64,000 bases of DNA from a virus (Duplodnaviria > Caudoviricetes). This document shows, piece after piece, positions 5,527 through 60,283 of the stretch. How positions within the stretch are numbered: the first letter of the stretch is position 1; each line of letters starts with the position of its first letter. The position numbers were made by a program, and so were the translations under genes. The notes beneath the pieces are model-generated. The model made no database searches and was not told where the DNA came from. It worked only from the letters and a program-made list of their open reading frames with translations. The stretch spans positions 19,666 to 83,665 of IMG/VR virus record IMGVR_UViG_3300014204_000154; one strand, 5' to 3'.

Positions 5527-5940
5527 CTATCGTCTTGCCTCCTGAGTCTGAGTCTTTGATAACACCTTTGTCATCTCCTTCTCTGCTTGTTGTTCCTGGC
5601 GAATCCGCAAACAGATATCAAGGAGACCCTTTCTAGCGACCAGCACCACAGCCCAGATAGCGACACAACGGGCGCAGAAAGATCCGAAGACTTCCTTGAC
5701 TCCAAAGAATGGAATGATGTGGCGCGGATCGGAAACTGCCGCCACTGGCGCTTCGCCCTTCTTTTTAAGCTTCGCCTTCTTCTTGGCTTCCTCCACCGCT
5801 TCCTTGATTGTATTGAAATTGATCATTGGCTGGAAATAGATCCGGAGAGGGACCGATTTGCTGTTCAAACAACGTGGGCATGAATCTCCATCAAACAATT
5901 CGTCGCAATCCAAGCAAATCTTGGCTGTTGATACTTTCAT
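5527..5940 (-). CDS. hypothetical protein with N-terminal Zn ribbon and hydrophobic segment
   Basis: CLDC...CPRC; GGAGG SD. Confidence 0.65.
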   Translation of the reverse strand: MKVSTAKICLDCDELFDGDSCPRCLNSKSVPLRIYFQPMINFNTIKEAVEEAKKKAKLKKKGEAPVAAVSDPRHIIPFFGVKEVFGSFCARCVAIWAVVLVARKGLLDICLRIRQEQQAEKEMTKVLSKTQTQEARR

Positions 5941-51675: not shown

Positions 51676-51775
51676 TTATTCCTTTGATGAAAATATGGAA
51701 GGGGTGGTCGGCCTTGAAACTCCATCGGAACCCTGACGGATGTTTCGCCGGTTATTCAACCCCTTCCGATTCGGA

Positions 51776-52162
51776 TCAATCAAATGTTCCCACAAATATT
51801 TGAATTTCTTCGATGGTCTTCCGGGCATAACGTCGATCCTTCCACTGGCGTGCCAAGGTAAGAAAGAGACGATTGCGGCAAACATCTCCCTTGGCCATAC
51901 GACCGGAAGGAGTGAGGAAGACAGAAGCCAATTCCTGTGGGCTGTTGATAATAATATCGATGATCTGTTTTGCTTCATCTGACATGGATTCGAATGCGTT
52001 ATTTCTGGTTTCTTCTTTCTCCTTCCTCTCCAGTATTTCTTCCGGAGTAACTGTGTCCACCAGCAATTCTTCCATTTCTGGCTGATCATGAGGAACGTAA
52101 CTGTTGGGATTGAATGCCACTATTGCCGCCCTTATAGCAGATTTCCTCGCCCCGGTTTTCAT
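51776..52162 (-). CDS. hypothetical protein
   Basis: 128 aa. Confidence 0.65.
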   Translation of the reverse strand: MKTGARKSAIRAAIVAFNPNSYVPHDQPEMEELLVDTVTPEEILERKEKEETRNNAFESMSDEAKQIIDIIINSPQELASVFLTPSGRMAKGDVCRNRLFLTLARQWKDRRYARKTIEEIQIFVGTFD

Positions 52163-52165
52163 ATC

Positions 52166-52516
52166 TCACTCGCCTTTCTTGATCATGCCATTCTTTTCAA
52201 ACTGGATATTCTTTCCCGCGATAAAGATTGAAAGACAATCGCCATCTCCACATCGGCCGCAATCATCTGTTCCTTTTCCCCTCCGACTCTGACAGGAAAT
52301 TACATCCATTTGACAGCTAAGTCTATCGCAGTAAAAATATCTGTTTAGTTCCACATCCGCACAGGAGATTGTATGCGCTTTGACATTTCTTTTCAGCGTT
52401 GGGCAGTAGCGTTCCCCGTCTTTGGGAAAACGCAAATCAGCTGGGCAGGTCATGTATATTTCGCAGAATTTACATTCAATCATTGGATTAAACGGCCGGT
52501 TAATTTTAAACGCCAT
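52166..52516 (-). CDS. Cys-rich hypothetical protein
   Basis: CKFC, multiple Cys; AAGGAGG SD. Confidence 0.65.
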   Translation of the reverse strand: MAFKINRPFNPMIECKFCEIYMTCPADLRFPKDGERYCPTLKRNVKAHTISCADVELNRYFYCDRLSCQMDVISCQSRRGKGTDDCGRCGDGDCLSIFIAGKNIQFEKNGMIKKGE

Positions 52517-52673
52517 CCTTTGCCTCCTTTATGGGAAACCGCTTTGCGGCTCTTTCCAAGATTTCAGAAGCCAATCGGGTTGCATTGGTATTCCGTTTGG
52601 CTGCTTCCTGATCCAGAGCCTCCTTGGCGGGGATTGAAATATATGTTCCTTGAACAGTTTTCTTCTTTGTCAT
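52506..52673 (-). CDS. ribbon-helix-helix (Arc/CopG-like) DNA-binding protein, 55 aa
   Basis: Not in track; MTKKKTVQGTYISIPAKEALDQEAAKRNTNATRLASEILERAAKRFPIKEAKDGV; AAGGAGG SD. Confidence 0.7.
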   Translation of the reverse strand: MTKKKTVQGTYISIPAKEALDQEAAKRNTNATRLASEILERAAKRFPIKEAKDGV

Positions 52674-52747
52674 ATGGTTAAACCTCCTTCTTTCCCTAAT
52701 TCAAGAGAAGGTATTTTAAAACTTTTTTAAAGAAAGGGAAAGAATTT

Positions 52748-53584
52748 TTAAAAACGGAATGAGCGGCGCATGGCGGATTCTACAGCGGCACGCTTGAGGT
52801 GACTTTTCATCTCGTGTGTGATGTACTGACAAAGGATATTGAAGAACAACCAGACAGACAGTGTCTTGACCTTAATGTCGGATAATCTGGCGCCGGACGA
52901 TACTTCAACCTGTTCTCCAATCGCTTCGATATCCTTGTTGGCCAGAGGCAACGCCATCATCACCCTCTCGTATTCGTTGGGCATCGTGAGCCGATCCACC
53001 CATTGCTCCCAGATCCGCTGCTGTTCAGAGAATCCGTTCATGGCCATCATAAGCGTTTCCTTCACGGAAGTCTCATCAAAGATCGTGTCGTGCCTGGTCC
53101 GGTACGCAAAGACCTTTTCGCCGATGGTCAACCCGTTCTTACAAATCAGCCGGTATGCACCAAAGAAGATCCGCCGTGACCAGCCGGAATCATAGCTGTT
53201 GAAGACTTCAATCTGAGGGTGAAGCTTGTCCGGCTTTCCGGAAGGCATGCCCCATCGCCGCCCCTTGATTGTTGCTTCGACTTCCTTGAAAACGTATGTT
53301 GCGCGCATTTTAGCGCCGTTGTCGTATAGGTTGATGGTTTCGGTTGGCGCCCCGAATTCGGGCATGTCCTTAACCACTTTCTGGATGGTTTCCAGCATCT
53401 GCTCATGCGGAGTCAGAATGTAATCCGCGCTGACCACCCCAAAGACCAAGTCCCGATCCGGATCAACGATGGCTTTGTATCCATCGATCCTTGAACCCGG
53501 ACGATTAATGCTGCTCAAAAAAACAGGCTTCTGCTGAACTTTCGGGAACGTCGGAACTACAATCAAGCTTTTCTCTTCTTCCAT
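52748..53584 (-). CDS. DUF932-family protein
   Basis: NSYDSGWS...GAYRLICKNG...RH pattern. Confidence 0.75.
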   Translation of the reverse strand: MEEEKSLIVVPTFPKVQQKPVFLSSINRPGSRIDGYKAIVDPDRDLVFGVVSADYILTPHEQMLETIQKVVKDMPEFGAPTETINLYDNGAKMRATYVFKEVEATIKGRRWGMPSGKPDKLHPQIEVFNSYDSGWSRRIFFGAYRLICKNGLTIGEKVFAYRTRHDTIFDETSVKETLMMAMNGFSEQQRIWEQWVDRLTMPNEYERVMMALPLANKDIEAIGEQVEVSSGARLSDIKVKTLSVWLFFNILCQYITHEMKSHLKRAAVESAMRRSFRF

Positions 53585-53834
53585 GATAAAACCTCCTCAA
53601 AATATTTTTTGAAGTTTCGATTCTAATTGCCTTTGCTATGGATTCAAAAAACTCCACATCCCTTTCCGTTCCTTCGATAAGGACCGCTTCATCATTCGAT
53701 TCGACCAGAAATTCACGGCCCAAAAGGAAAATACGCGCTGGTTCAAAACAGAACAGAGACTTGTCTGTTGAAATAACGAAGGCGGTGGAATCCACCGCCT
53801 CTGGGCATTTCCTGATTTCAAGATAGGTTTTCAT
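53505..53834 (-). CDS. hypothetical protein
   Basis: 109 aa; 3' end overlaps DUF932 gene. Confidence 0.55.
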   Translation of the reverse strand: MKTYLEIRKCPEAVDSTAFVISTDKSLFCFEPARIFLLGREFLVESNDEAVLIEGTERDVEFFESIAKAIRIETSKNILRRFYHGRREKLDCSSDVPESSAEACFFEQH

Positions 53835-54055
53835 TGAGCCCTCCTCCTGTTCCGCCTGACAGGTCTTGAATCGCCATCGAATGGCCTTCCAAAAAAATCG
53901 GCCGCTTCGTTGGCAAGATCCATCAATGAGAGAACAACAAAAGAGACGGCGTTAAACATCAAAAGGATTGAAAGCCAAATTGGAATTTTGCCTAATGTTT
54001 CGATGAAGACAACAATGAGCAAAAAATAAACAACAAACACCACAAATTTGATCAC
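53831..54055 (-). CDS. small membrane protein (2 TM)
   Basis: Two hydrophobic segments; AAGGAGG SD. Confidence 0.65.
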   Translation of the reverse strand: MIKFVVFVVYFLLIVVFIETLGKIPIWLSILLMFNAVSFVVLSLMDLANEAADFFGRPFDGDSRPVRRNRRRAQ

Positions 54056-54056
54056 T

Positions 54057-54536
54057 TCAAATTCCTCCTTTCCGGAATTCCAATTCTGTACTGTATTTCT
54101 GTTCCACCAACGCCTTGTATGGATACAAATCCTTCAATTCCTCTTTAAGATTCCTGTTCTCATCCGCAAGATCCTCTATCAGCCGCAGGATCTTGGCGGA
54201 TGCTCTCCGCTCTGCCTGGCGCATTTCCATTTGGATTATGCCCACAATCTGATCGAAAATCCGGCCTTTCGTAAACCTAGCCGGAACCCGATTGGATGGT
54301 TTGCGGTTTCTATTCCGAAGAGGAGCGGAAATGACTTCCATTGCAATCCCCTTCTTTTTCGCAAGCCGTTTCGTATGGGCGAAGAGAGCAAAGGCGGTTT
54401 TTTTCTGGCCTCCAAAAAACCCAGGCCAAAATTCCTCCAACGTCACGAATTCTTCCCGCTTCGCTTTATTCCCGTTTTCCGCTAATTGATCCAAAAGAAA
54501 TTGATTTTGAGCGCTTGTGTAATTTTCTCCAGGCAT
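54057..54536 (-). CDS. hypothetical protein, C-terminal coiled coil
   Basis: 159 aa. Confidence 0.7.
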   Translation of the reverse strand: MPGENYTSAQNQFLLDQLAENGNKAKREEFVTLEEFWPGFFGGQKKTAFALFAHTKRLAKKKGIAMEVISAPLRNRNRKPSNRVPARFTKGRIFDQIVGIIQMEMRQAERRASAKILRLIEDLADENRNLKEELKDLYPYKALVEQKYSTELEFRKGGI

Positions 54537-54551
54537 CGAGAACCCCCTTTT

Positions 54552-54728
54552 TTAGCTCCAGCAATGACGACGCATTTGACGATCCAGCTGCTTTTTGGTC
54601 ATACCGGCTTTGATCCCGATCTTGGGATTGTCAACATAATTCCGCTTGACGCTTTCCAGATTGCTATCGTCTATGAAGGCGGAAATCCTCTTGACAATCT
54701 CCTGTTCCGAAAGTCTCTTTGCGGCCAT
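54552..54728 (-). CDS. hypothetical protein (58 aa)
   Basis: Not in track; MAAKRLSEQEIVKRISAFIDDSNLES...; GGAGG SD. Confidence 0.6.
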   Translation of the reverse strand: MAAKRLSEQEIVKRISAFIDDSNLESVKRNYVDNPKIGIKAGMTKKQLDRQMRRHCWS

Positions 54729-54729
54729 C

Positions 54730-54975
54730 TCATCCCTCCAGAAATGTTTTTAAATCGTCATTGAGCTGATCGCCCCGAAGGAAGACGGGGCACAATTTCA
54801 TTTCTACTTCCGATGCCGGGATGGAAAGAGAAACCAGCGGACCTTTGCGCCGGGGCAACACCGCAACCGTGGCTGTAGGATCGCTTGATTGAACGACGAT
54901 CTTGGCAACGGCAAAGCTTCCTCTCCATTTAATCACTGCGATTCCTCTTTGGCCCATAAATATCCTCCTTTTCAA
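54730..54975 (-). CDS. hypothetical protein
   Basis: AAGGAGG SD; first gene downstream of the hammerhead. Confidence 0.6.
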   Translation of the reverse strand: MKRRIFMGQRGIAVIKWRGSFAVAKIVVQSSDPTATVAVLPRRKGPLVSLSIPASEVEMKLCPVFLRGDQLNDDLKTFLEG

Positions 54976-55001
54976 ATAAAGTAAATTGTTTTTTTTGTTC
55001 C

Positions 55002-55060
55002 ACCCTCATCAGTGCCAGCATAACTAGCATACCGGCGATCCTCCAGCGCCGGTTTCGGGT
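55002..55060 (-). ncRNA. type II hammerhead ribozyme
   Basis: ACCC-GAAA-CCGGCG-[CTGGAGGAT]-CGCCGG-TA-TGCTAG-[TTATG]-CTGGCA-CTGATGA-GGGT: all core nucleotides and three stems present. Confidence 0.9.
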
Positions 55061-55064
55061 TGTC

Positions 55065-55211
55065 TTACTTCAGGCAGTCAGCGCACCGGAATCCGGCGTT
55101 GGGCCGCTTGGTTTCCTTGCGGATGCGCTCAATCTTCTTCCGGACGATATCTGCCGGCACCCACTTCGTCTCCCTGCACTTGGTGCACTTCACCTTGATT
55201 TTCCCCTTCAT
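55065..55211 (-). CDS. 48-aa basic Zn-finger protein
   Basis: Not in track; MKGKIKVKCTKCRETKWVPADIVRKKIERIRKETKRPNAGFRCADCLK; AAGGAGG SD; GC3-biased. Confidence 0.75.
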   Translation of the reverse strand: MKGKIKVKCTKCRETKWVPADIVRKKIERIRKETKRPNAGFRCADCLK

Positions 55212-55441
55212 TTTCTTTCCTCCTTTTTAGAATAATGCATTTGTATTCTCCTTGCTTCTGATATCGCGTTTTCCTTTCTCGTTCCCAAATCATAAACCAC
55301 CATTTCGGGAACGTCTATTCCAAACGTTTGCATTTTTGCTTCATGCTCTGTTTCCACCTTTATTGCCATCCGCCACGTGCTATCCAAATTTTCCTCCCCT
55401 TGAGTGGTTGGCCATTCAACCAACATAAACGACTTTTTCAT
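55208..55441 (-). CDS. hypothetical protein
   Basis: Start moved to MKKSFML. Confidence 0.6.
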   Translation of the reverse strand: MKKSFMLVEWPTTQGEENLDSTWRMAIKVETEHEAKMQTFGIDVPEMVVYDLGTRKENAISEARRIQMHYSKKEERK

Positions 55442-55463
55442 TTTCCCCTCCTGTCCCAATCGA

Positions 55464-55889
55464 TCAAAATTTGTGTTGATATTCTTCCACCGCTTGACGG
55501 ATCGTCGTGAGCGCCCTAAATTTTTCAACCAGCAATTTGTTTTCCTCTTCGACCTTTGCCAACCGCACTTCCAACTCCGCTTTCTCCTTTTTCAAGGCTT
55601 GATACTCTTCCTTGACAGCCGCAACGTGATCGCAAAAAGACATCGCTTTCCCAACAACTTTCTTTTCCGTTATCGGCTGTGCATTGGCCGCAAATCGCTT
55701 CCTTCTCTGAAAAAAAGTCGAATAAATCCCGGTCTTGGGGCGCTGCGGTTGATTCTCTGTCAAATTGATTTTAAGAATCGCTTCATACAGCGCATCGGCG
55801 ACTCCATCCGTTATTGGTTCGTTGACATATGCCCTTGCAAAATCATTGATCTCCTTGTTTTCCGCTGCGCTGTATTGTCTTGACCCCAT
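55464..55889 (-). CDS. hypothetical protein, coiled-coil C-terminus
   Basis: AAAGGGAGG SD. Confidence 0.7.
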   Translation of the reverse strand: MGSRQYSAAENKEINDFARAYVNEPITDGVADALYEAILKINLTENQPQRPKTGIYSTFFQRRKRFAANAQPITEKKVVGKAMSFCDHVAAVKEEYQALKKEKAELEVRLAKVEEENKLLVEKFRALTTIRQAVEEYQHKF

Positions 55890-55901
55890 TGTATCCTCCC
55901 T

Positions 55902-56282
55902 TTAGAAAGCGCCTGGAATTTCGATGCTGTCCAGATCGATGTTGTCCATGTCGTCAAACGCGCTCCGGAGATTGTCCGCGGCCGTTTCGGTATCGGAAAA
56001 CTTGTCTGTTCCCTGAAGGTTTTCCGGGAAATTGTCCCGGCGCTCCTCCATCTTGTCGGCCAATTCCTCGATGATCGACTGCGCCAGTGATTTTGCCTCA
56101 TTCGCTTCCGCCAGCTGTTCCATCATCGTTGGCGCCTCGTTGATCTTCTTAATGGAAACGCTTGGCATCGCATCTCCCAGCCGTTCCCGGAGAAGAGCAA
56201 TGGCCATCCCTACAACCTCATGAACCTTTTCCTTCCGAAGACCTTTCTTGGTCACATTAATTTCGATTTTGAACTTTGCCAT
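55902..56282 (-). CDS. hypothetical acidic protein
   Basis: Start moved to MAKFKIE; NFPENLQG motif. Confidence 0.7.
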   Translation of the reverse strand: MAKFKIEINVTKKGLRKEKVHEVVGMAIALLRERLGDAMPSVSIKKINEAPTMMEQLAEANEAKSLAQSIIEELADKMEERRDNFPENLQGTDKFSDTETAADNLRSAFDDMDNIDLDSIEIPGAF

Positions 56283-56295
56283 GATCGTTCTCCTT

Positions 56296-56577
56296 TCAAT
56301 CGCAATCTCTATCGTCAAAAGATATATTTTCAAAATCAACCTTGGCCGCACTTTTGAAACTCTTTTCAAATTCGTTTCTGGCAAAAGCCGCCAGTTTCTT
56401 CCCTACAGCGATATACAAATCATAATACCCATCTTGGTGACCCGTTGTGAACTCGGCAACTGCCAAAATCCTCCGGCTTTCTTCGCAATCGCCGATCTTT
56501 TCCCCGTATCCGACAACCCTGATTCCCTTCCAACTCTTCCTTGCCACCATCTCCTTTTCGAATGTCTTGAAATCCAT
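56296..56577 (-). CDS. hypothetical protein
   Basis: Start moved to MDFKTF (GGGAGG SD). Confidence 0.65.
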   Translation of the reverse strand: MDFKTFEKEMVARKSWKGIRVVGYGEKIGDCEESRRILAVAEFTTGHQDGYYDLYIAVGKKLAAFARNEFEKSFKSAAKVDFENISFDDRDCD

Positions 56578-56578
56578 T

Positions 56579-57262
56579 TCATCCTCCCACAGAGATTTGA
56601 AACCCAAAATTAATGAGAATTCCCTTGACTGCCTGGACCGTTTCCAGCTTGTTGGCCTTCCGCTCCGCAAGTAACTTTCCAACGACACCTACAGCAATTT
56701 TCATGGATTCGTCGGCAACTTCTAACAAGATTTCCTCTACAACCTCGTCAACGATCCGCTCCAGATCCGCTTCTGTCTTCTTGACCGGCATAGCCGCGGA
56801 ATCAACCGTGTCTTCGATATCGGTGAAAAACTTCTTTGGCATAATGATCGGCTTTGTATACGCCTTTTTAGGCTTAACAACTTCGGCCGCTTGTTCGATC
56901 TTGAAATAAGCCTTGAATTCCTTCTCCCAGAGGTCCAGGAGCATAAGGTGAGCGGATTTGAAGGAATCGTCGTGCCGATGCCCCTTTATATGGGCCAACT
57001 CGTGAAGAATCGTGGAAACCCGTTCCCCGCTCAGGTGGACAATCATTCGCTTCTTATCTTTCCAAACCGTCGCGTTTCTTGCCACCGTAACCCTCTTGGT
57101 GTACTCACAACTGAAGAGCGGCCACCCCATCTTCTTGGAGACCAGTTTGCAAAGAAGATTCGCTTCACTCTCGTTTAGATGGATCATCTTGGTTGGGTGC
57201 CCCGCAAGGCTGTGATGCTCTCCCCTACTCTTGCCGGATTTCATCGCTTTATTCTCCGTCAT
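56579..57262 (-). CDS. HExxH (zincin-like) protein
   Basis: STILHELAH...HDDSF; AGGAGGAGG SD. Confidence 0.7.
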   Translation of the reverse strand: MTENKAMKSGKSRGEHHSLAGHPTKMIHLNESEANLLCKLVSKKMGWPLFSCEYTKRVTVARNATVWKDKKRMIVHLSGERVSTILHELAHIKGHRHDDSFKSAHLMLLDLWEKEFKAYFKIEQAAEVVKPKKAYTKPIIMPKKFFTDIEDTVDSAAMPVKKTEADLERIVDEVVEEILLEVADESMKIAVGVVGKLLAERKANKLETVQAVKGILINFGFQISVGG

Positions 57263-57346
57263 AGCCTCCTCCTATTCCGATAATCGATTGATTGAAATAC
57301 CAATCAGAAGATCCATTCCGGTTGGATCTTCCTCAGACGCTTCAAA

Positions 57347-57613
57347 TCAATAAAGTTGCTTGTGAAACGATTTGCCGCAACGGGCGCACGTTCCCGCCAT
57401 ACACCCACTGTCTGGTCCGCCATAACTTTCGTCTATCCACTTGTGACCGAATTTGTTGCAGACCTTGGTCAGAATGGCTATTTTGATAAGCCACCCGATG
57501 GTGTAGAAGAAGTTTGTGAAGAGCAGAATCCTATAAGGAAGCTTGCTGCCCATCGCATACTTGTCCGCCGCTGCGTTGAAAGAGATTTCCTGAAAAAATT
57601 CTTTTGCGTTCAT
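57347..57613 (-). CDS. hypothetical membrane-anchored protein with Zn motif
   Basis: TM segment; C...H...CARC; first ORF after the early leader. Confidence 0.65.
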   Translation of the reverse strand: MNAKEFFQEISFNAAADKYAMGSKLPYRILLFTNFFYTIGWLIKIAILTKVCNKFGHKWIDESYGGPDSGCMAGTCARCGKSFHKQLY

Positions 57614-57958
57614 CGTCTTTCTCCTTTCGTCTCGTAAGTGTCGCGCTTTTCAGATCCTTGATTTGATATAGCGCCGGGAGATTTTTCAATCTCCCACAGG
57701 ATCTATCGCTGAAGTATCATCCAGCATTAACCTACACCGTGGCCAGCCATCTTGTATGTAGGATTTGGGTGCCTCTCCGTTTCCTATCCGGAGTGTTCCT
57801 GCCCCCGTTCTCTTTAGTGTTTTGAAAAGCGCTTCCGCTTTCTCCGTATTCTTGGGCGGGATTGGTCCTGCTCGCCTTTGTTCGCTGCTCCCCGTCTATT
57901 TTCAATCGGCTTTCTATCGATGACCTTTGGTTGCCGTTCCCTTTGTTTTCTCCTTTCT
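57614..57958 (-). ncRNA. candidate ~345-nt structured, purine/GGA-rich RNA downstream of the early promoter
   Basis: No convincing ORF after the first SD; hairpins CTCCG/CGGAG, GGGAGATT-GAAA-AATCTCCC, CCTACA/TGTAGG, GATCCT/AGGATC. Confidence 0.4.
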
Positions 57959-57965
57959 TGATGCT

Positions 57966-57993
57966 AGTTTACCGAAATCTAAAGAGAAGTCAA
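57966..57993 (-). promoter_or_regulatory. strong sigma70-like early promoter with phased A/T tracts upstream
   Basis: TTGACT-16 bp-TAAACT; TTT(T)AAA(A) palindromes at 57998-58029 about 12 bp apart. Confidence 0.7.
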
Positions 57994-58092
57994 GGAATTT
58001 TTTAAAGGATTTTTAAAAATCTTTTAAAACTCAATCGAAACGAGGATTTAGAACAGAAAATATTTTTCTACCCAGGACGATACTAAAGGAAG

Positions 58093-58122
58093 AAAAGGCC
58101 ATCTTTCGGAACCGATGGCCTT
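58093..58122 (-). terminator. terminator after the lysis cassette
   Basis: AAGGCCATC/GATGGCCTT stem + TTTT. Confidence 0.7.
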
Positions 58123-58200
58123 AACTTATTGATATGATTATTGATTTACGAGAATTTTTTAAAAGAATCTTCGAAGATGGGAAAGGATCATCATAAATGG

Positions 58201-58638
58201 TTATAATACAAGGAGAATTACCAGAGCGCCAACCCCGATTCCGCCCAGGAATATTTTGGCATTATCGAAGAAAGACGGCTTGGCCGCGTCCACCTGTTGT
58301 TTCCAGATCTGGTCCTTGGCGACACTGATCTGATTCTTCATTTCGATCATATTTTTGCTCACCTCATCGATCTGTTTGTAGACCTCGATTTGGTCTTGCA
58401 ACAACTGGATCGTTCCCTTCAGAATCGTCAGCTGTTGTTTCAGCTCTTCACTTCCCTCTGCGGCGACAACCAGCTGTTGCTCTGCGATTTTCGCCCTCTC
58501 CAGATCAACAACGATCTTCCCGGCCGTCCCTTCGTCAAAACAGATTTCCTCCGCGCTACTGCTTTGGGGGAAGAGGAGTGCGATCAAGAGCAATAAAACG
58601 ATCCCGAATCTCAGTATTGCTTTTTGGTGGGGGGACAT
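58201..58638 (-). CDS. spanin-like membrane protein
   Basis: N-terminal signal/TM, coiled coil, C-terminal TM; start moved to MSPHQK. Confidence 0.55.
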   Translation of the reverse strand: MSPHQKAILRFGIVLLLLIALLFPQSSSAEEICFDEGTAGKIVVDLERAKIAEQQLVVAAEGSEELKQQLTILKGTIQLLQDQIEVYKQIDEVSKNMIEMKNQISVAKDQIWKQQVDAAKPSFFDNAKIFLGGIGVGALVILLVL

Positions 58639-58951
58639 CTCTTTTCTCCTTTTCAAGATCGCTGTATTTCTTCGCCAGCGTCTCATATTTCGCTTCAGAA
58701 ACTTTTAGCCTTGATTTGAAATCATTGATTTGTCTGTTTTGAGTCAAGATTGTCTCTTCCTTCGCCTTTAACGTCCTCTCATATTGATCTTTCAACGTCT
58801 GCCCAATTGTGGAATCGATAACCGCTGGGGCATCAATCGGCTTGGGAGAAGAGGGCCAAAGCCATATGGCCAAAGCGATAATCGAAGCCAGAATGATAAC
58901 CCCCTTCACAACTGCCCCTTTGTTTTTTTTGATCCATTCTTTCATCACCAA
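58556..58951 (-). CDS. i-spanin-like protein
   Basis: N-terminal TM followed by coiled coil; follows the endolysin. Confidence 0.55.
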   Translation of the reverse strand: MVMKEWIKKNKGAVVKGVIILASIIALAIWLWPSSPKPIDAPAVIDSTIGQTLKDQYERTLKAKEETILTQNRQINDFKSRLKVSEAKYETLAKKYSDLEKEKRDVPPPKSNTEIRDRFIALDRTPLPPKQ

Positions 58952-59529
58952 TACCTCATTTGATCTGGCCCACGTCGGTATTCATTCCCATACCTTGCAA
59001 TCTTTTTCGAATAATCATAATTCACTTCACAAAGGTCCAGCACGCCCCATTTCATTTTGATCTTCTTGCGCTGGCACGAAAGTTTCATCAAATCCCAATC
59101 AAGAATCTTTGCCCGTTGATACTCCGCAAACAAGGTTCCTTTTCCCCCGTTGTAAATCTGAGCATCTATCCATAAAGGTTTATCCTTTGCCCAATTCTCA
59201 ATCCTATGAATCCGATACATATAGAAAGCTTGCATACAGATAGCATGTTGTGGGTTGTAAGGATCTAGCGTCTGGCCCATCAATGATTGAATGTAGGTGG
59301 AAGTCCGTGGCATAAATTGGGCAACTCCTTGCCCAGCATCGAAGGCGGTTGCATTGGACCGGCAAGCCGACTCCGTTTTGAGCTGACCAACCCCGTACCA
59401 ATATGGATACATCATCCCAAATTGTTTCGTGTATTCTATCCTGACGTCATTAACCAAAAGGGCGCAACGATCCGCCGCCCAGGCAGGGAGAGAGAAAAAG
59501 ACAATGATTATGATCAAGACATTTTTCAA
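58945..59529 (-). CDS. endolysin, SLT lytic transglycosylase with N-terminal signal
   Basis: QLKTES, GQGVAQFMPRT, YNGG, NYDYSKKI. Confidence 0.9.
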   Translation of the reverse strand: MKNVLIIIIVFFSLPAWAADRCALLVNDVRIEYTKQFGMMYPYWYGVGQLKTESACRSNATAFDAGQGVAQFMPRTSTYIQSLMGQTLDPYNPQHAICMQAFYMYRIHRIENWAKDKPLWIDAQIYNGGKGTLFAEYQRAKILDWDLMKLSCQRKKIKMKWGVLDLCEVNYDYSKKIARYGNEYRRGPDQMRYW

Positions 59530-59535
59530 GGCTTA

Positions 59536-59856
59536 TTATCCCCCAGAGGAAATCGCATGGATCACAATCATGTAAATTCCCAGAAGGAATATGACCCCAG
59601 CCCAATTCTTCTCCCTGATCAATATCTCAAGATCAAGATAGTGCCATTTCCAATGCCGGAATATATCGACAAGGAGAAGTCCCCAGAGCGCCCCGTTGGT
59701 CTTAACGACAAACAATGCCAGCATGTTGGTCAAAGATCCGGCCTGTTCCGCCTCCTCCTTGGTCGATGGCAAGAGAAAGGAAAGGGAAAACATAACTGCC
59801 ATGACTGCGATTTCAACCCAGATCCGCTTCGCTTTTTTGAATAATTTCTCAAACAT
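59536..59856 (-). CDS. putative holin (3 TM)
   Basis: Three hydrophobic segments; adjacent to the endolysin. Confidence 0.6.
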   Translation of the reverse strand: MFEKLFKKAKRIWVEIAVMAVMFSLSFLLPSTKEEAEQAGSLTNMLALFVVKTNGALWGLLLVDIFRHWKWHYLDLEILIREKNWAGVIFLLGIYMIVIHAISSGG

Positions 59857-59859
59857 TGT

Positions 59860-60258
59860 TTATTCTCCGTCAGAAATAATCACCCCTGTTGTTTCCAGCA
59901 CGCATTGTCCACTGCTGCAATGAATTTGATGTTTATGCTTGTTGATACGATTCCACTTTTCTCCGCTTTCCCTCTTATAATCATCAATATTTATTTTTTT
60001 ATGTATCTCGCTTTGAACCGAAGTCACACATTGCTCGATTCGCCCAACGGTTTTCTTCAATTCATTATGTCTTTCAATCGCCCCTTCCTGCCATATTTTG
60101 AGCGATTCAGCTGCGCTTTTATCCTTTGAAATGATAAGCCGCTTTATGTACCAACCAAGTGTTGGAATTCCGATCACCGAAATCACAGCAAAGACCAAAC
60201 TCAGCAAAAGAGATTCTATGGAAACCGTAACTGGAGTGGATGGGATGGCGGAAAGCAT
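59860..60258 (-). CDS. membrane protein, holin/antiholin-like
   Basis: One TM + coiled coil. Confidence 0.55.
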   Translation of the reverse strand: MLSAIPSTPVTVSIESLLLSLVFAVISVIGIPTLGWYIKRLIISKDKSAAESLKIWQEGAIERHNELKKTVGRIEQCVTSVQSEIHKKINIDDYKRESGEKWNRINKHKHQIHCSSGQCVLETTGVIISDGE

Positions 60259-60283
60259 TTTTGAATCCTCCTGACCTTTTTAT

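Follow-up and report, generated by a model that had tools for sequence, protein, structure and literature searches.

Introduction

The closest described relatives of the element reported here are the type II hammerhead ribozymes of phages and prophages. Hammerheads that flank prophage genes cleave in vitro during transcription of polycistronic constructs of about 2 kb (PMC3088659), and Perreault et al. (2011) proposed that long phage transcripts are processed into shorter mRNAs (PMC3088659). A review from 2019 repeats this mRNA-processing reading as still unproven (PMC6765202). The pseudoknot of type II hammerheads is formed by loop I pairing with the 3' tail, and a pseudoknot is found in about 40% of hammerheads (PMC3088659).

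Evidence from living cells comes from Desulfovibrio vulgaris, where three type II hammerheads close to phage genes were shown to cleave in vivo (PMC8782182). For these loci, termed loc 1-3, the fragments with a 2',3'-cyclic phosphate and those with a 5'-OH were both captured from total RNA (PMC8782182), and the type II class is therefore active in vivo. In the HHphage hammerhead of the haloviruses HF1 and HF2, a mapped transcript 5' end lies within 3 nt of the cleavage site (PMC3088659).

The DNA analysed here, referred to as the window, makes up the right-hand 64 kb of an IMG/VR virus record of 83,665 bases, rated 94% complete. The minus strand carries nearly all of its genes, and among them lies one type II hammerhead motif. 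The arrangement in phages has been described since 2011, and the motif in the window is a good but ordinary example of it.

Results and discussion

Organisation of the motif

The sequence-only reading of this DNA had described a complete type II hammerhead at 55002-55060. Direct reading of the minus strand bears out every one of its coordinates, and gives the following features.

55002-55060, minus strand: type II hammerhead ribozyme, 59 nt (sequence, Rfam, fold, shuffles and leave-one-out covariance model)
55057-55060, minus strand: 11.x strand of stem II, ACCC, pairing with GGGU at 55005-55002 (direct reading)
55053-55056, minus strand: core G12, A13 and A14 with A15.1, GAAA (direct reading; invariant in a 33-sequence alignment)
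55031-55052, minus strand: stem III hairpin and U16.1 (direct reading and fold)
55052-55047, minus strand: 5' strand of stem III, CCGGCG
55046-55038, minus strand: 9-nt loop of stem III, CUGGAGGAU
55037-55032, minus strand: 3' strand of stem III, CGCCGG
55031 and 55030, minus strand: U16.1 and A17, followed by the cut (direct reading)
55029-55030, minus strand: predicted scissile bond, 3' of A17 (55030) and 5' of U1.1 (55029) (hammerhead numbering)
55013-55029, minus strand: stem I hairpin, UGCUAG(U)-UAU-(G)CUGGCA (direct reading and fold)
55006-55012, minus strand: core C3 to A9, CUGAUGA (direct reading; invariant in the 33-sequence alignment)
55002-55005, minus strand: 10.x strand of stem II, GGGU (direct reading)

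The order of the strands, read directly, is 11.x, GAAA, hairpin III, UH, hairpin I, CUGAUGA and 10.x. Stems I and III are capped by loops and stem II is open, which is the type II topology, and the hammerhead core (C3 U4 G5 A6 N7 G8 A9 and G12 A13 A14) is complete. Stem II has 4 bp, stem III has 6 bp plus the A15.1-U16.1 pair, and stem I has 6 bp, or 7 with its closing U-G. These stem lengths, the core and the GUA cleavage triplet had all been given in the sequence-only reading, and they are confirmed both by reading the strand and by the minimum free energy (MFE) fold, which for 81 nt is exactly the hammerhead three-way junction.

Published acceptance criteria ask for three helices around the core, with standard pairs at 10.1-11.1 and 1.1-2.1 (PMC3088659). 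The motif has three such helices, and the pairs adjacent to its core are standard ones, namely G10.1 (55005)-C11.1 (55057), U1.1 (55029)-A2.1 (55013) and A15.1-U16.1. The last of these is formed by A 55053 and U 55031, and is followed by A17 at 55030, in keeping with the H (not G) required at the cleavage site. A cut between 55030 and 55029, as had been predicted, is correct by hammerhead numbering, and the product ends predicted with it (an upstream hairpin ending in a cyclic phosphate, and a downstream 5'-OH) follow from hammerhead chemistry.

It is worth adding that loop III holds a GGAGG sequence (55044-55040), and 9 nt 3' of it the cleavage site is spanned by an AUG (55030-55028). This AUG opens an open reading frame of 33 residues (55030..54929, minus strand), which overlaps the next gene's start and its Shine-Dalgarno sequence, and cleavage would abolish the AUG. 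The arrangement is probably due to chance, because neither the GGAGG in loop III nor the AUG at the site is conserved among the hammerheads found with stem I left free in the search.

Statistical support

A search of Rfam, which had been proposed as a check on the type, names type II as the best match but does not reach the threshold of the family. The match is to RF02276 (Hammerhead_II), covers model positions 1-66, and at 29.0 bits is the best of the hammerhead clan, CL00010, and the sole ribozyme match reported by Rfam, whereas the gathering score of RF02276 is 37 bits. The E-value is 5.4e-4 when 401 nt are searched and 0.087 for the whole window. The Rfam alignment takes GGGU as an insertion and cuts loop I from 10 to 5 nt. 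Clearly genuine hammerheads that are arrayed in other phages (see below) score 25-51 bits against RF02276, about half of them below 37. The 29 bits of the window motif are therefore typical of a short-loop subclass, and are not counter-evidence. The gathering threshold is conservative for hammerheads of this kind, with short loops and a 4-bp stem II.

Other measures show the motif to be statistically significant. A purpose-built descriptor gave one match in the window; in 300 dinucleotide shuffles, scanned on both strands, it gave two loose matches and none equally good. A covariance model was then built from 32 other phage hammerheads, with the window's own sequence excluded. This leave-one-out model scores the window motif at 62.2 bits (E about 1e-16), and with filters off the motif is its only match across the 83.7-kb genome. 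No further ribozyme was found in the 83.7 kb, either by Rfam at E up to 1 or by two custom covariance models with filters off.

Genomic context

The motif lies between two small genes, as follows.

55065-55211, minus strand: upstream open reading frame, 48 residues, CxxC...CxxC zinc-ribbon protein (open reading frame list)
54958-55001, minus strand: A-rich spacer, 44 nt, with the Shine-Dalgarno sequence AAGGAGG at 54970-54964 (sequence)
54730-54957, minus strand: downstream open reading frame, 75 residues, orphan, ATG at 54957 (open reading frame list; also gene-called on contigs L043 and L044)

The upstream gene has a Shine-Dalgarno sequence of its own (AAGGAGG) and ends in UAA at 55067-55065. 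The four nucleotides GACA then separate it from the motif, which is the 4-nt spacing given previously. Its protein has Pfam zinc-binding matches that are weak and under the cut-off, and the gene is also called on two further contigs. Among 5.8 billion proteins, the flanking proteins of 48 and 75 residues matched only themselves, and are orphans.

The hammerhead is on the sense strand of a long string of co-oriented genes, after a stop codon and ahead of the next ribosome-binding site. According to the gene calls it occupies a gap of 107 nt, the largest intergenic gap in this tightly packed part of the string. Further small genes, a DUF932 gene and a helicase/replication block follow downstream, with the helicase gene about 3.3 kb from the hammerhead. 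The small genes around the motif are upstream of this block, which makes the earlier placement of the motif in an early operon plausible. A scan for consensus promoters and terminators between 52.5 and 58.5 kb gave counts equal to those of shuffled sequences. Stem III was considered as an intrinsic terminator and ruled out, as it is not followed by a run of U.

Also among the small genes upstream of the ribozyme, at 56579-57262 of the window (minus strand), is a gene for a protein of 227 residues with an HExxH motif (LHELAHIKGH). It has weak matches to Peptidase_M78/IrrE-like and WLM domains, under the cut-off, and is possibly a metalloprotease.

A blastn search with 3 kb of the locus gave no match among GenBank phages. 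Two other contigs, L043 (ENA ERZ27247350, 72 kb) and L044 (JGI 3300035208, 7.3 kb), are 100% and 99.97% identical to window positions 51700-58000 over 6.2 and 3.9 kb, and are the same phage, independently assembled. The DUF932-like neighbour finds one related phage, L002, with 64% amino acid identity (53% for the helicase). When L002:544-4840 is compared with window positions 53585-60283, the block from DUF932 to the helicase is kept and the genes upstream of it are entirely different. L002 has neither the hammerhead nor any part of the small-gene block, and the hammerhead is therefore located in a hypervariable region of orphan small genes. No diverged copy of the locus was found in the collections searched, and a metagenome pattern scan for such copies returned only the contig of L005, which is discussed next.

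Related hammerheads in other phages

IMG/VR was scanned with patterns that each left one of the stems unconstrained, giving about 42 loci; for each of the two broadest patterns the estimated number of chance matches is less than one. Among these loci the descriptor detects 57 hammerheads, of which 36 are unique. The layout common to the 36 is a stop codon, the hammerhead, a Shine-Dalgarno sequence and a start codon. The hammerhead starts between -2 and +8 nt from the stop of the upstream open reading frame in 31 of 37 unique placements, and the next start codon usually follows 0-35 nt after it. The window motif is a member of this widespread phage class.

In an alignment of 33 sequences, 94% of cells are paired, 17 of the 20 pairs have double-sided changes and stem II covaries across the class. 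Neither shuffles nor slid registers of the alignment come near the observed pairing, although the patterns and the descriptor used for choosing the set require part of the structure, so that the pairing statistics are partly circular. Judged from these sequences, the class is a real and diverse family of hammerheads; the alignment does not prove the copy in the window.

The closest look-alike, L005:5684-5738, belongs to an unrelated phage; relative to the window motif it has two compensatory changes, a G-C pair replaced by U-A in stem I and a C-G pair by G-C in stem II. Other unrelated phages have near-identical stems, and several bacterial phyla have members with the same pattern. The loci that carry these hammerheads have essentially no homology to the phage of the window. 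Many of the look-alikes are arrayed, whereas the phage of the window carries a single copy.

Some of the related loci are of interest in themselves. L008:2150-5077 (plus strand; IMGVR_UViG_3300014059_000106) has ten type II hammerheads in 2.9 kb, roughly one for each intergenic gap. Most have GGAGAAC and the next start codon within a few nucleotides on their 3' side, and those reported by Rfam score 25-36 bits, all under the gathering cut-off. L005 (IMGVR_UViG_3300014204_000260) has four type II hammerheads, at 5684, 7058, 7853 and 9351. About 900 nt downstream of the last of these, on the same strand, is a Twister-P5 ribozyme (L005:10302-10356, plus strand; RF02684, 59.3 bits against a gathering score of 37.6), which makes five self-cleaving ribozymes in less than 5 kb. 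In the L006-L037 family (for example L009:4911-4970), a near-invariant type II hammerhead is very widespread, with about 25 IMG/VR contigs carrying it. The sequence AGCCG immediately 5' of its stem II is the complement of its loop I, CGGCU, and in variants with AGCCA 4 bp are retained. Such a contact would be a pseudoknot with the 5' flank, unlike the 3'-tail pseudoknot of the literature.

Tertiary contact and translation

The consensus pseudoknot of type II hammerheads, in which loop I forms 4 bp or more with the 3' tail that follows stem II, is common and not obligatory. It is absent in the window, where the best complementarity between these two elements is 2 bp. Because there is no recognisable tertiary contact, the rate of cleavage at physiological Mg2+ could be low, and this is the main ground for doubting that cleavage is fast at the Mg2+ concentration of the cell. 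The 3' tail does not appear to mask the core: by eye, its 44 nt hold no complement of CUGAUGA.

A different contact had been suggested in the sequence-only reading, in which UUAU of loop I could pair with GUAA (55068-55065), the sequence that spans the upstream stop codon; the same reading also raised a coupling to the termination of translation. The match has 4 bp including one G-U, and it consumes a base of stem I. Matches between loop and flank of at least 4 bp, with G-U allowed, are present in 58% of real pairs and in 43% of mismatched controls. The UUAU/GUAA pairing is at chance level and carries no weight.

Folding of the motif within its surroundings gave a similar outcome. In a 186-nt context the predicted MFE fold is not the hammerhead, and the 5' half of the ribozyme is instead paired with coding sequence from upstream. 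However, the same is seen across the class: for 36 hammerheads, the median probability of the hammerhead fold is 0.36 for the motif alone and about 0.02 with its flanks, with a drop in nearly all of them. A switch specific to the window and dependent on translation or context was therefore rejected. The closeness of the stop codon is sufficiently explained by the compactness of the gaps and by the need for the stop codon to stay on the 5' product. Both observations being class-wide, nothing specific supports a coupling to termination at this locus.

Proposed function

We propose, with a probability of about 0.72, that the motif is a genuine type II hammerhead self-cleaving ribozyme in a minus-strand polycistronic phage mRNA, and that constitutive processing by it splits the message. 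Cutting in vivo, the speed of the reaction and its consequences for expression are what we infer here. In the transcript, the 59-nt motif would fold into the three-way junction, and the backbone would be cut between A17 (55030) and U1.1 (55029), during or after transcription. The upstream RNA would retain its stop codon and end 35 nt later in the GC-rich hairpin of stem III, with a 2',3'-cyclic phosphate. The downstream RNA would begin with a 5'-OH and the 7-bp hairpin of stem I, followed by a largely unstructured, A-rich leader of 55 nt with a strong Shine-Dalgarno sequence. Each product would thereby carry a protective terminal hairpin. Because only the 4-bp stem II joins the two pieces after cleavage, they would be expected to part, making the cut effectively irreversible. 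It is likely that the stability and translation of the downstream genes (the small genes, DUF932 and the helicase/replication block) would then be independent of the upstream block of small genes.

The motif might instead be able to cleave and yet be a passenger, brought in on a mobile cassette of small genes or left over from a former array, with little or no regulatory benefit. Its solitary occurrence in the 83.7-kb genome, when look-alikes are so often arrayed, speaks for this, as do its position in a hypervariable block of orphan genes that the one related phage lacks entirely, the near-identical stems in unrelated phages and in bacteria of several phyla, and the lack of an obvious tertiary contact. 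However, a perfect core and three undamaged stems speak for continuing selection, and the position between a stop codon and a Shine-Dalgarno sequence fits the rule for the class. On balance we think it unlikely that the ribozyme is of so little use to the phage. That the whole motif is a chance match to the consensus, without ribozyme activity, is very improbable indeed. The score under the RF02276 gathering threshold and a fold energy that is unexceptional (z = -0.93 for the 81-nt fold) would be compatible with such a match; on the other side are the 300 shuffles of which none was equally good, the E-value of about 1e-16 from the leave-one-out model, and the location in a gap between genes, on the sense strand and with the layout typical of the class. 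A rough analytical estimate, based on 11 fixed core bases and 17 pairs, puts chance occurrence at about 1e-7 per 64-kb window.

It could also be that the ribozyme cleaves only under certain conditions, set by translation of the upstream open reading frame, with the contact between loop I and GUAA linking the stop codon to the active fold. In variants of this idea, a terminating ribosome melts stem II and the GAAA strand, or ribosomes clear the competing pairing between the 3' end of the open reading frame and the 5' half of the hammerhead. With a stop codon 4 nt from stem II, a terminating ribosome must overlay part of the ribozyme, and both the possible UUAU/GUAA pairing and the 186-nt fold are in keeping with a coupling of this kind. 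Yet, as described above, the pairing is no better than chance, the loss of the fold is generic and the closeness of the stop is to be expected; moreover, the known type II pseudoknot employs the 3' tail (PMC3088659). We consider coupling at this locus quite improbable. A broader form of the idea, that short-loop type II hammerheads lacking a pseudoknot and lying behind phage stop codons are a distinct subclass gated by the ribosome that terminates upstream, with the GUAA/loop I contact contributing here, seems to us a long shot. If it were true, cleavage would be confined to translated messages, or else to untranslated ones, and the element would be a natural translation-sensing ribozyme switch. 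Constitutive processing of the message remains the reading that we prefer.

Comparison with known systems

The motif has much in common with the type II hammerheads of RF02276 (PMC3088659). It shares with them the identical 11-nt catalytic core, the A15.1-U16.1 pair and a GUH triplet, as well as capped stems I and III, an open stem II and a location in an intergenic gap between co-oriented phage genes. It differs from them in that it scores below the gathering cut-off (29 against 37), has a short loop I (3-5 nt), has no pseudoknot joining loop I to the 3' tail, and is present as a single copy and not in a cluster. The gathering score of RF02276 misses this subclass with short loops and a 4-bp stem II.

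The three D. vulgaris loci, examined by cyPhyRNA-seq, are likewise type II hammerheads near hypothetical and phage-like genes (PMC8782182). They are chromosomal or prophage copies in a cultured bacterium, whereas the copy in the window comes from the genome of an uncultivated phage. HHphage of HF1 and HF2 is alike in being upstream of early or replication genes, 13 nt before the start codon of a helicase (PMC3088659). However, HHphage, a structural variant, requires high salt and is located at the head of its transcript, while the ribozyme of the window has a canonical core and is internal.

RiboJ-type insulators offer a comparison from synthetic biology. In these, a hammerhead is placed before a ribosome-binding site, and its cleavage leaves a defined 5'-OH leader with a hairpin, so that expression is uncoupled from the upstream sequence. 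RiboJ is synthetic and derives from the type III hammerhead of a satellite RNA, and its likeness to the window motif is a functional analogy and not homology.

As a lone ribozyme at the largest gap of a co-oriented gene string, the motif provides a simple test case for differences in mRNA stability between upstream and downstream genes. It is a further clean example, with the full consensus, among the many phage hammerheads, which are functionally still unexplained, and set beside the systems already described it leaves current knowledge unchanged.
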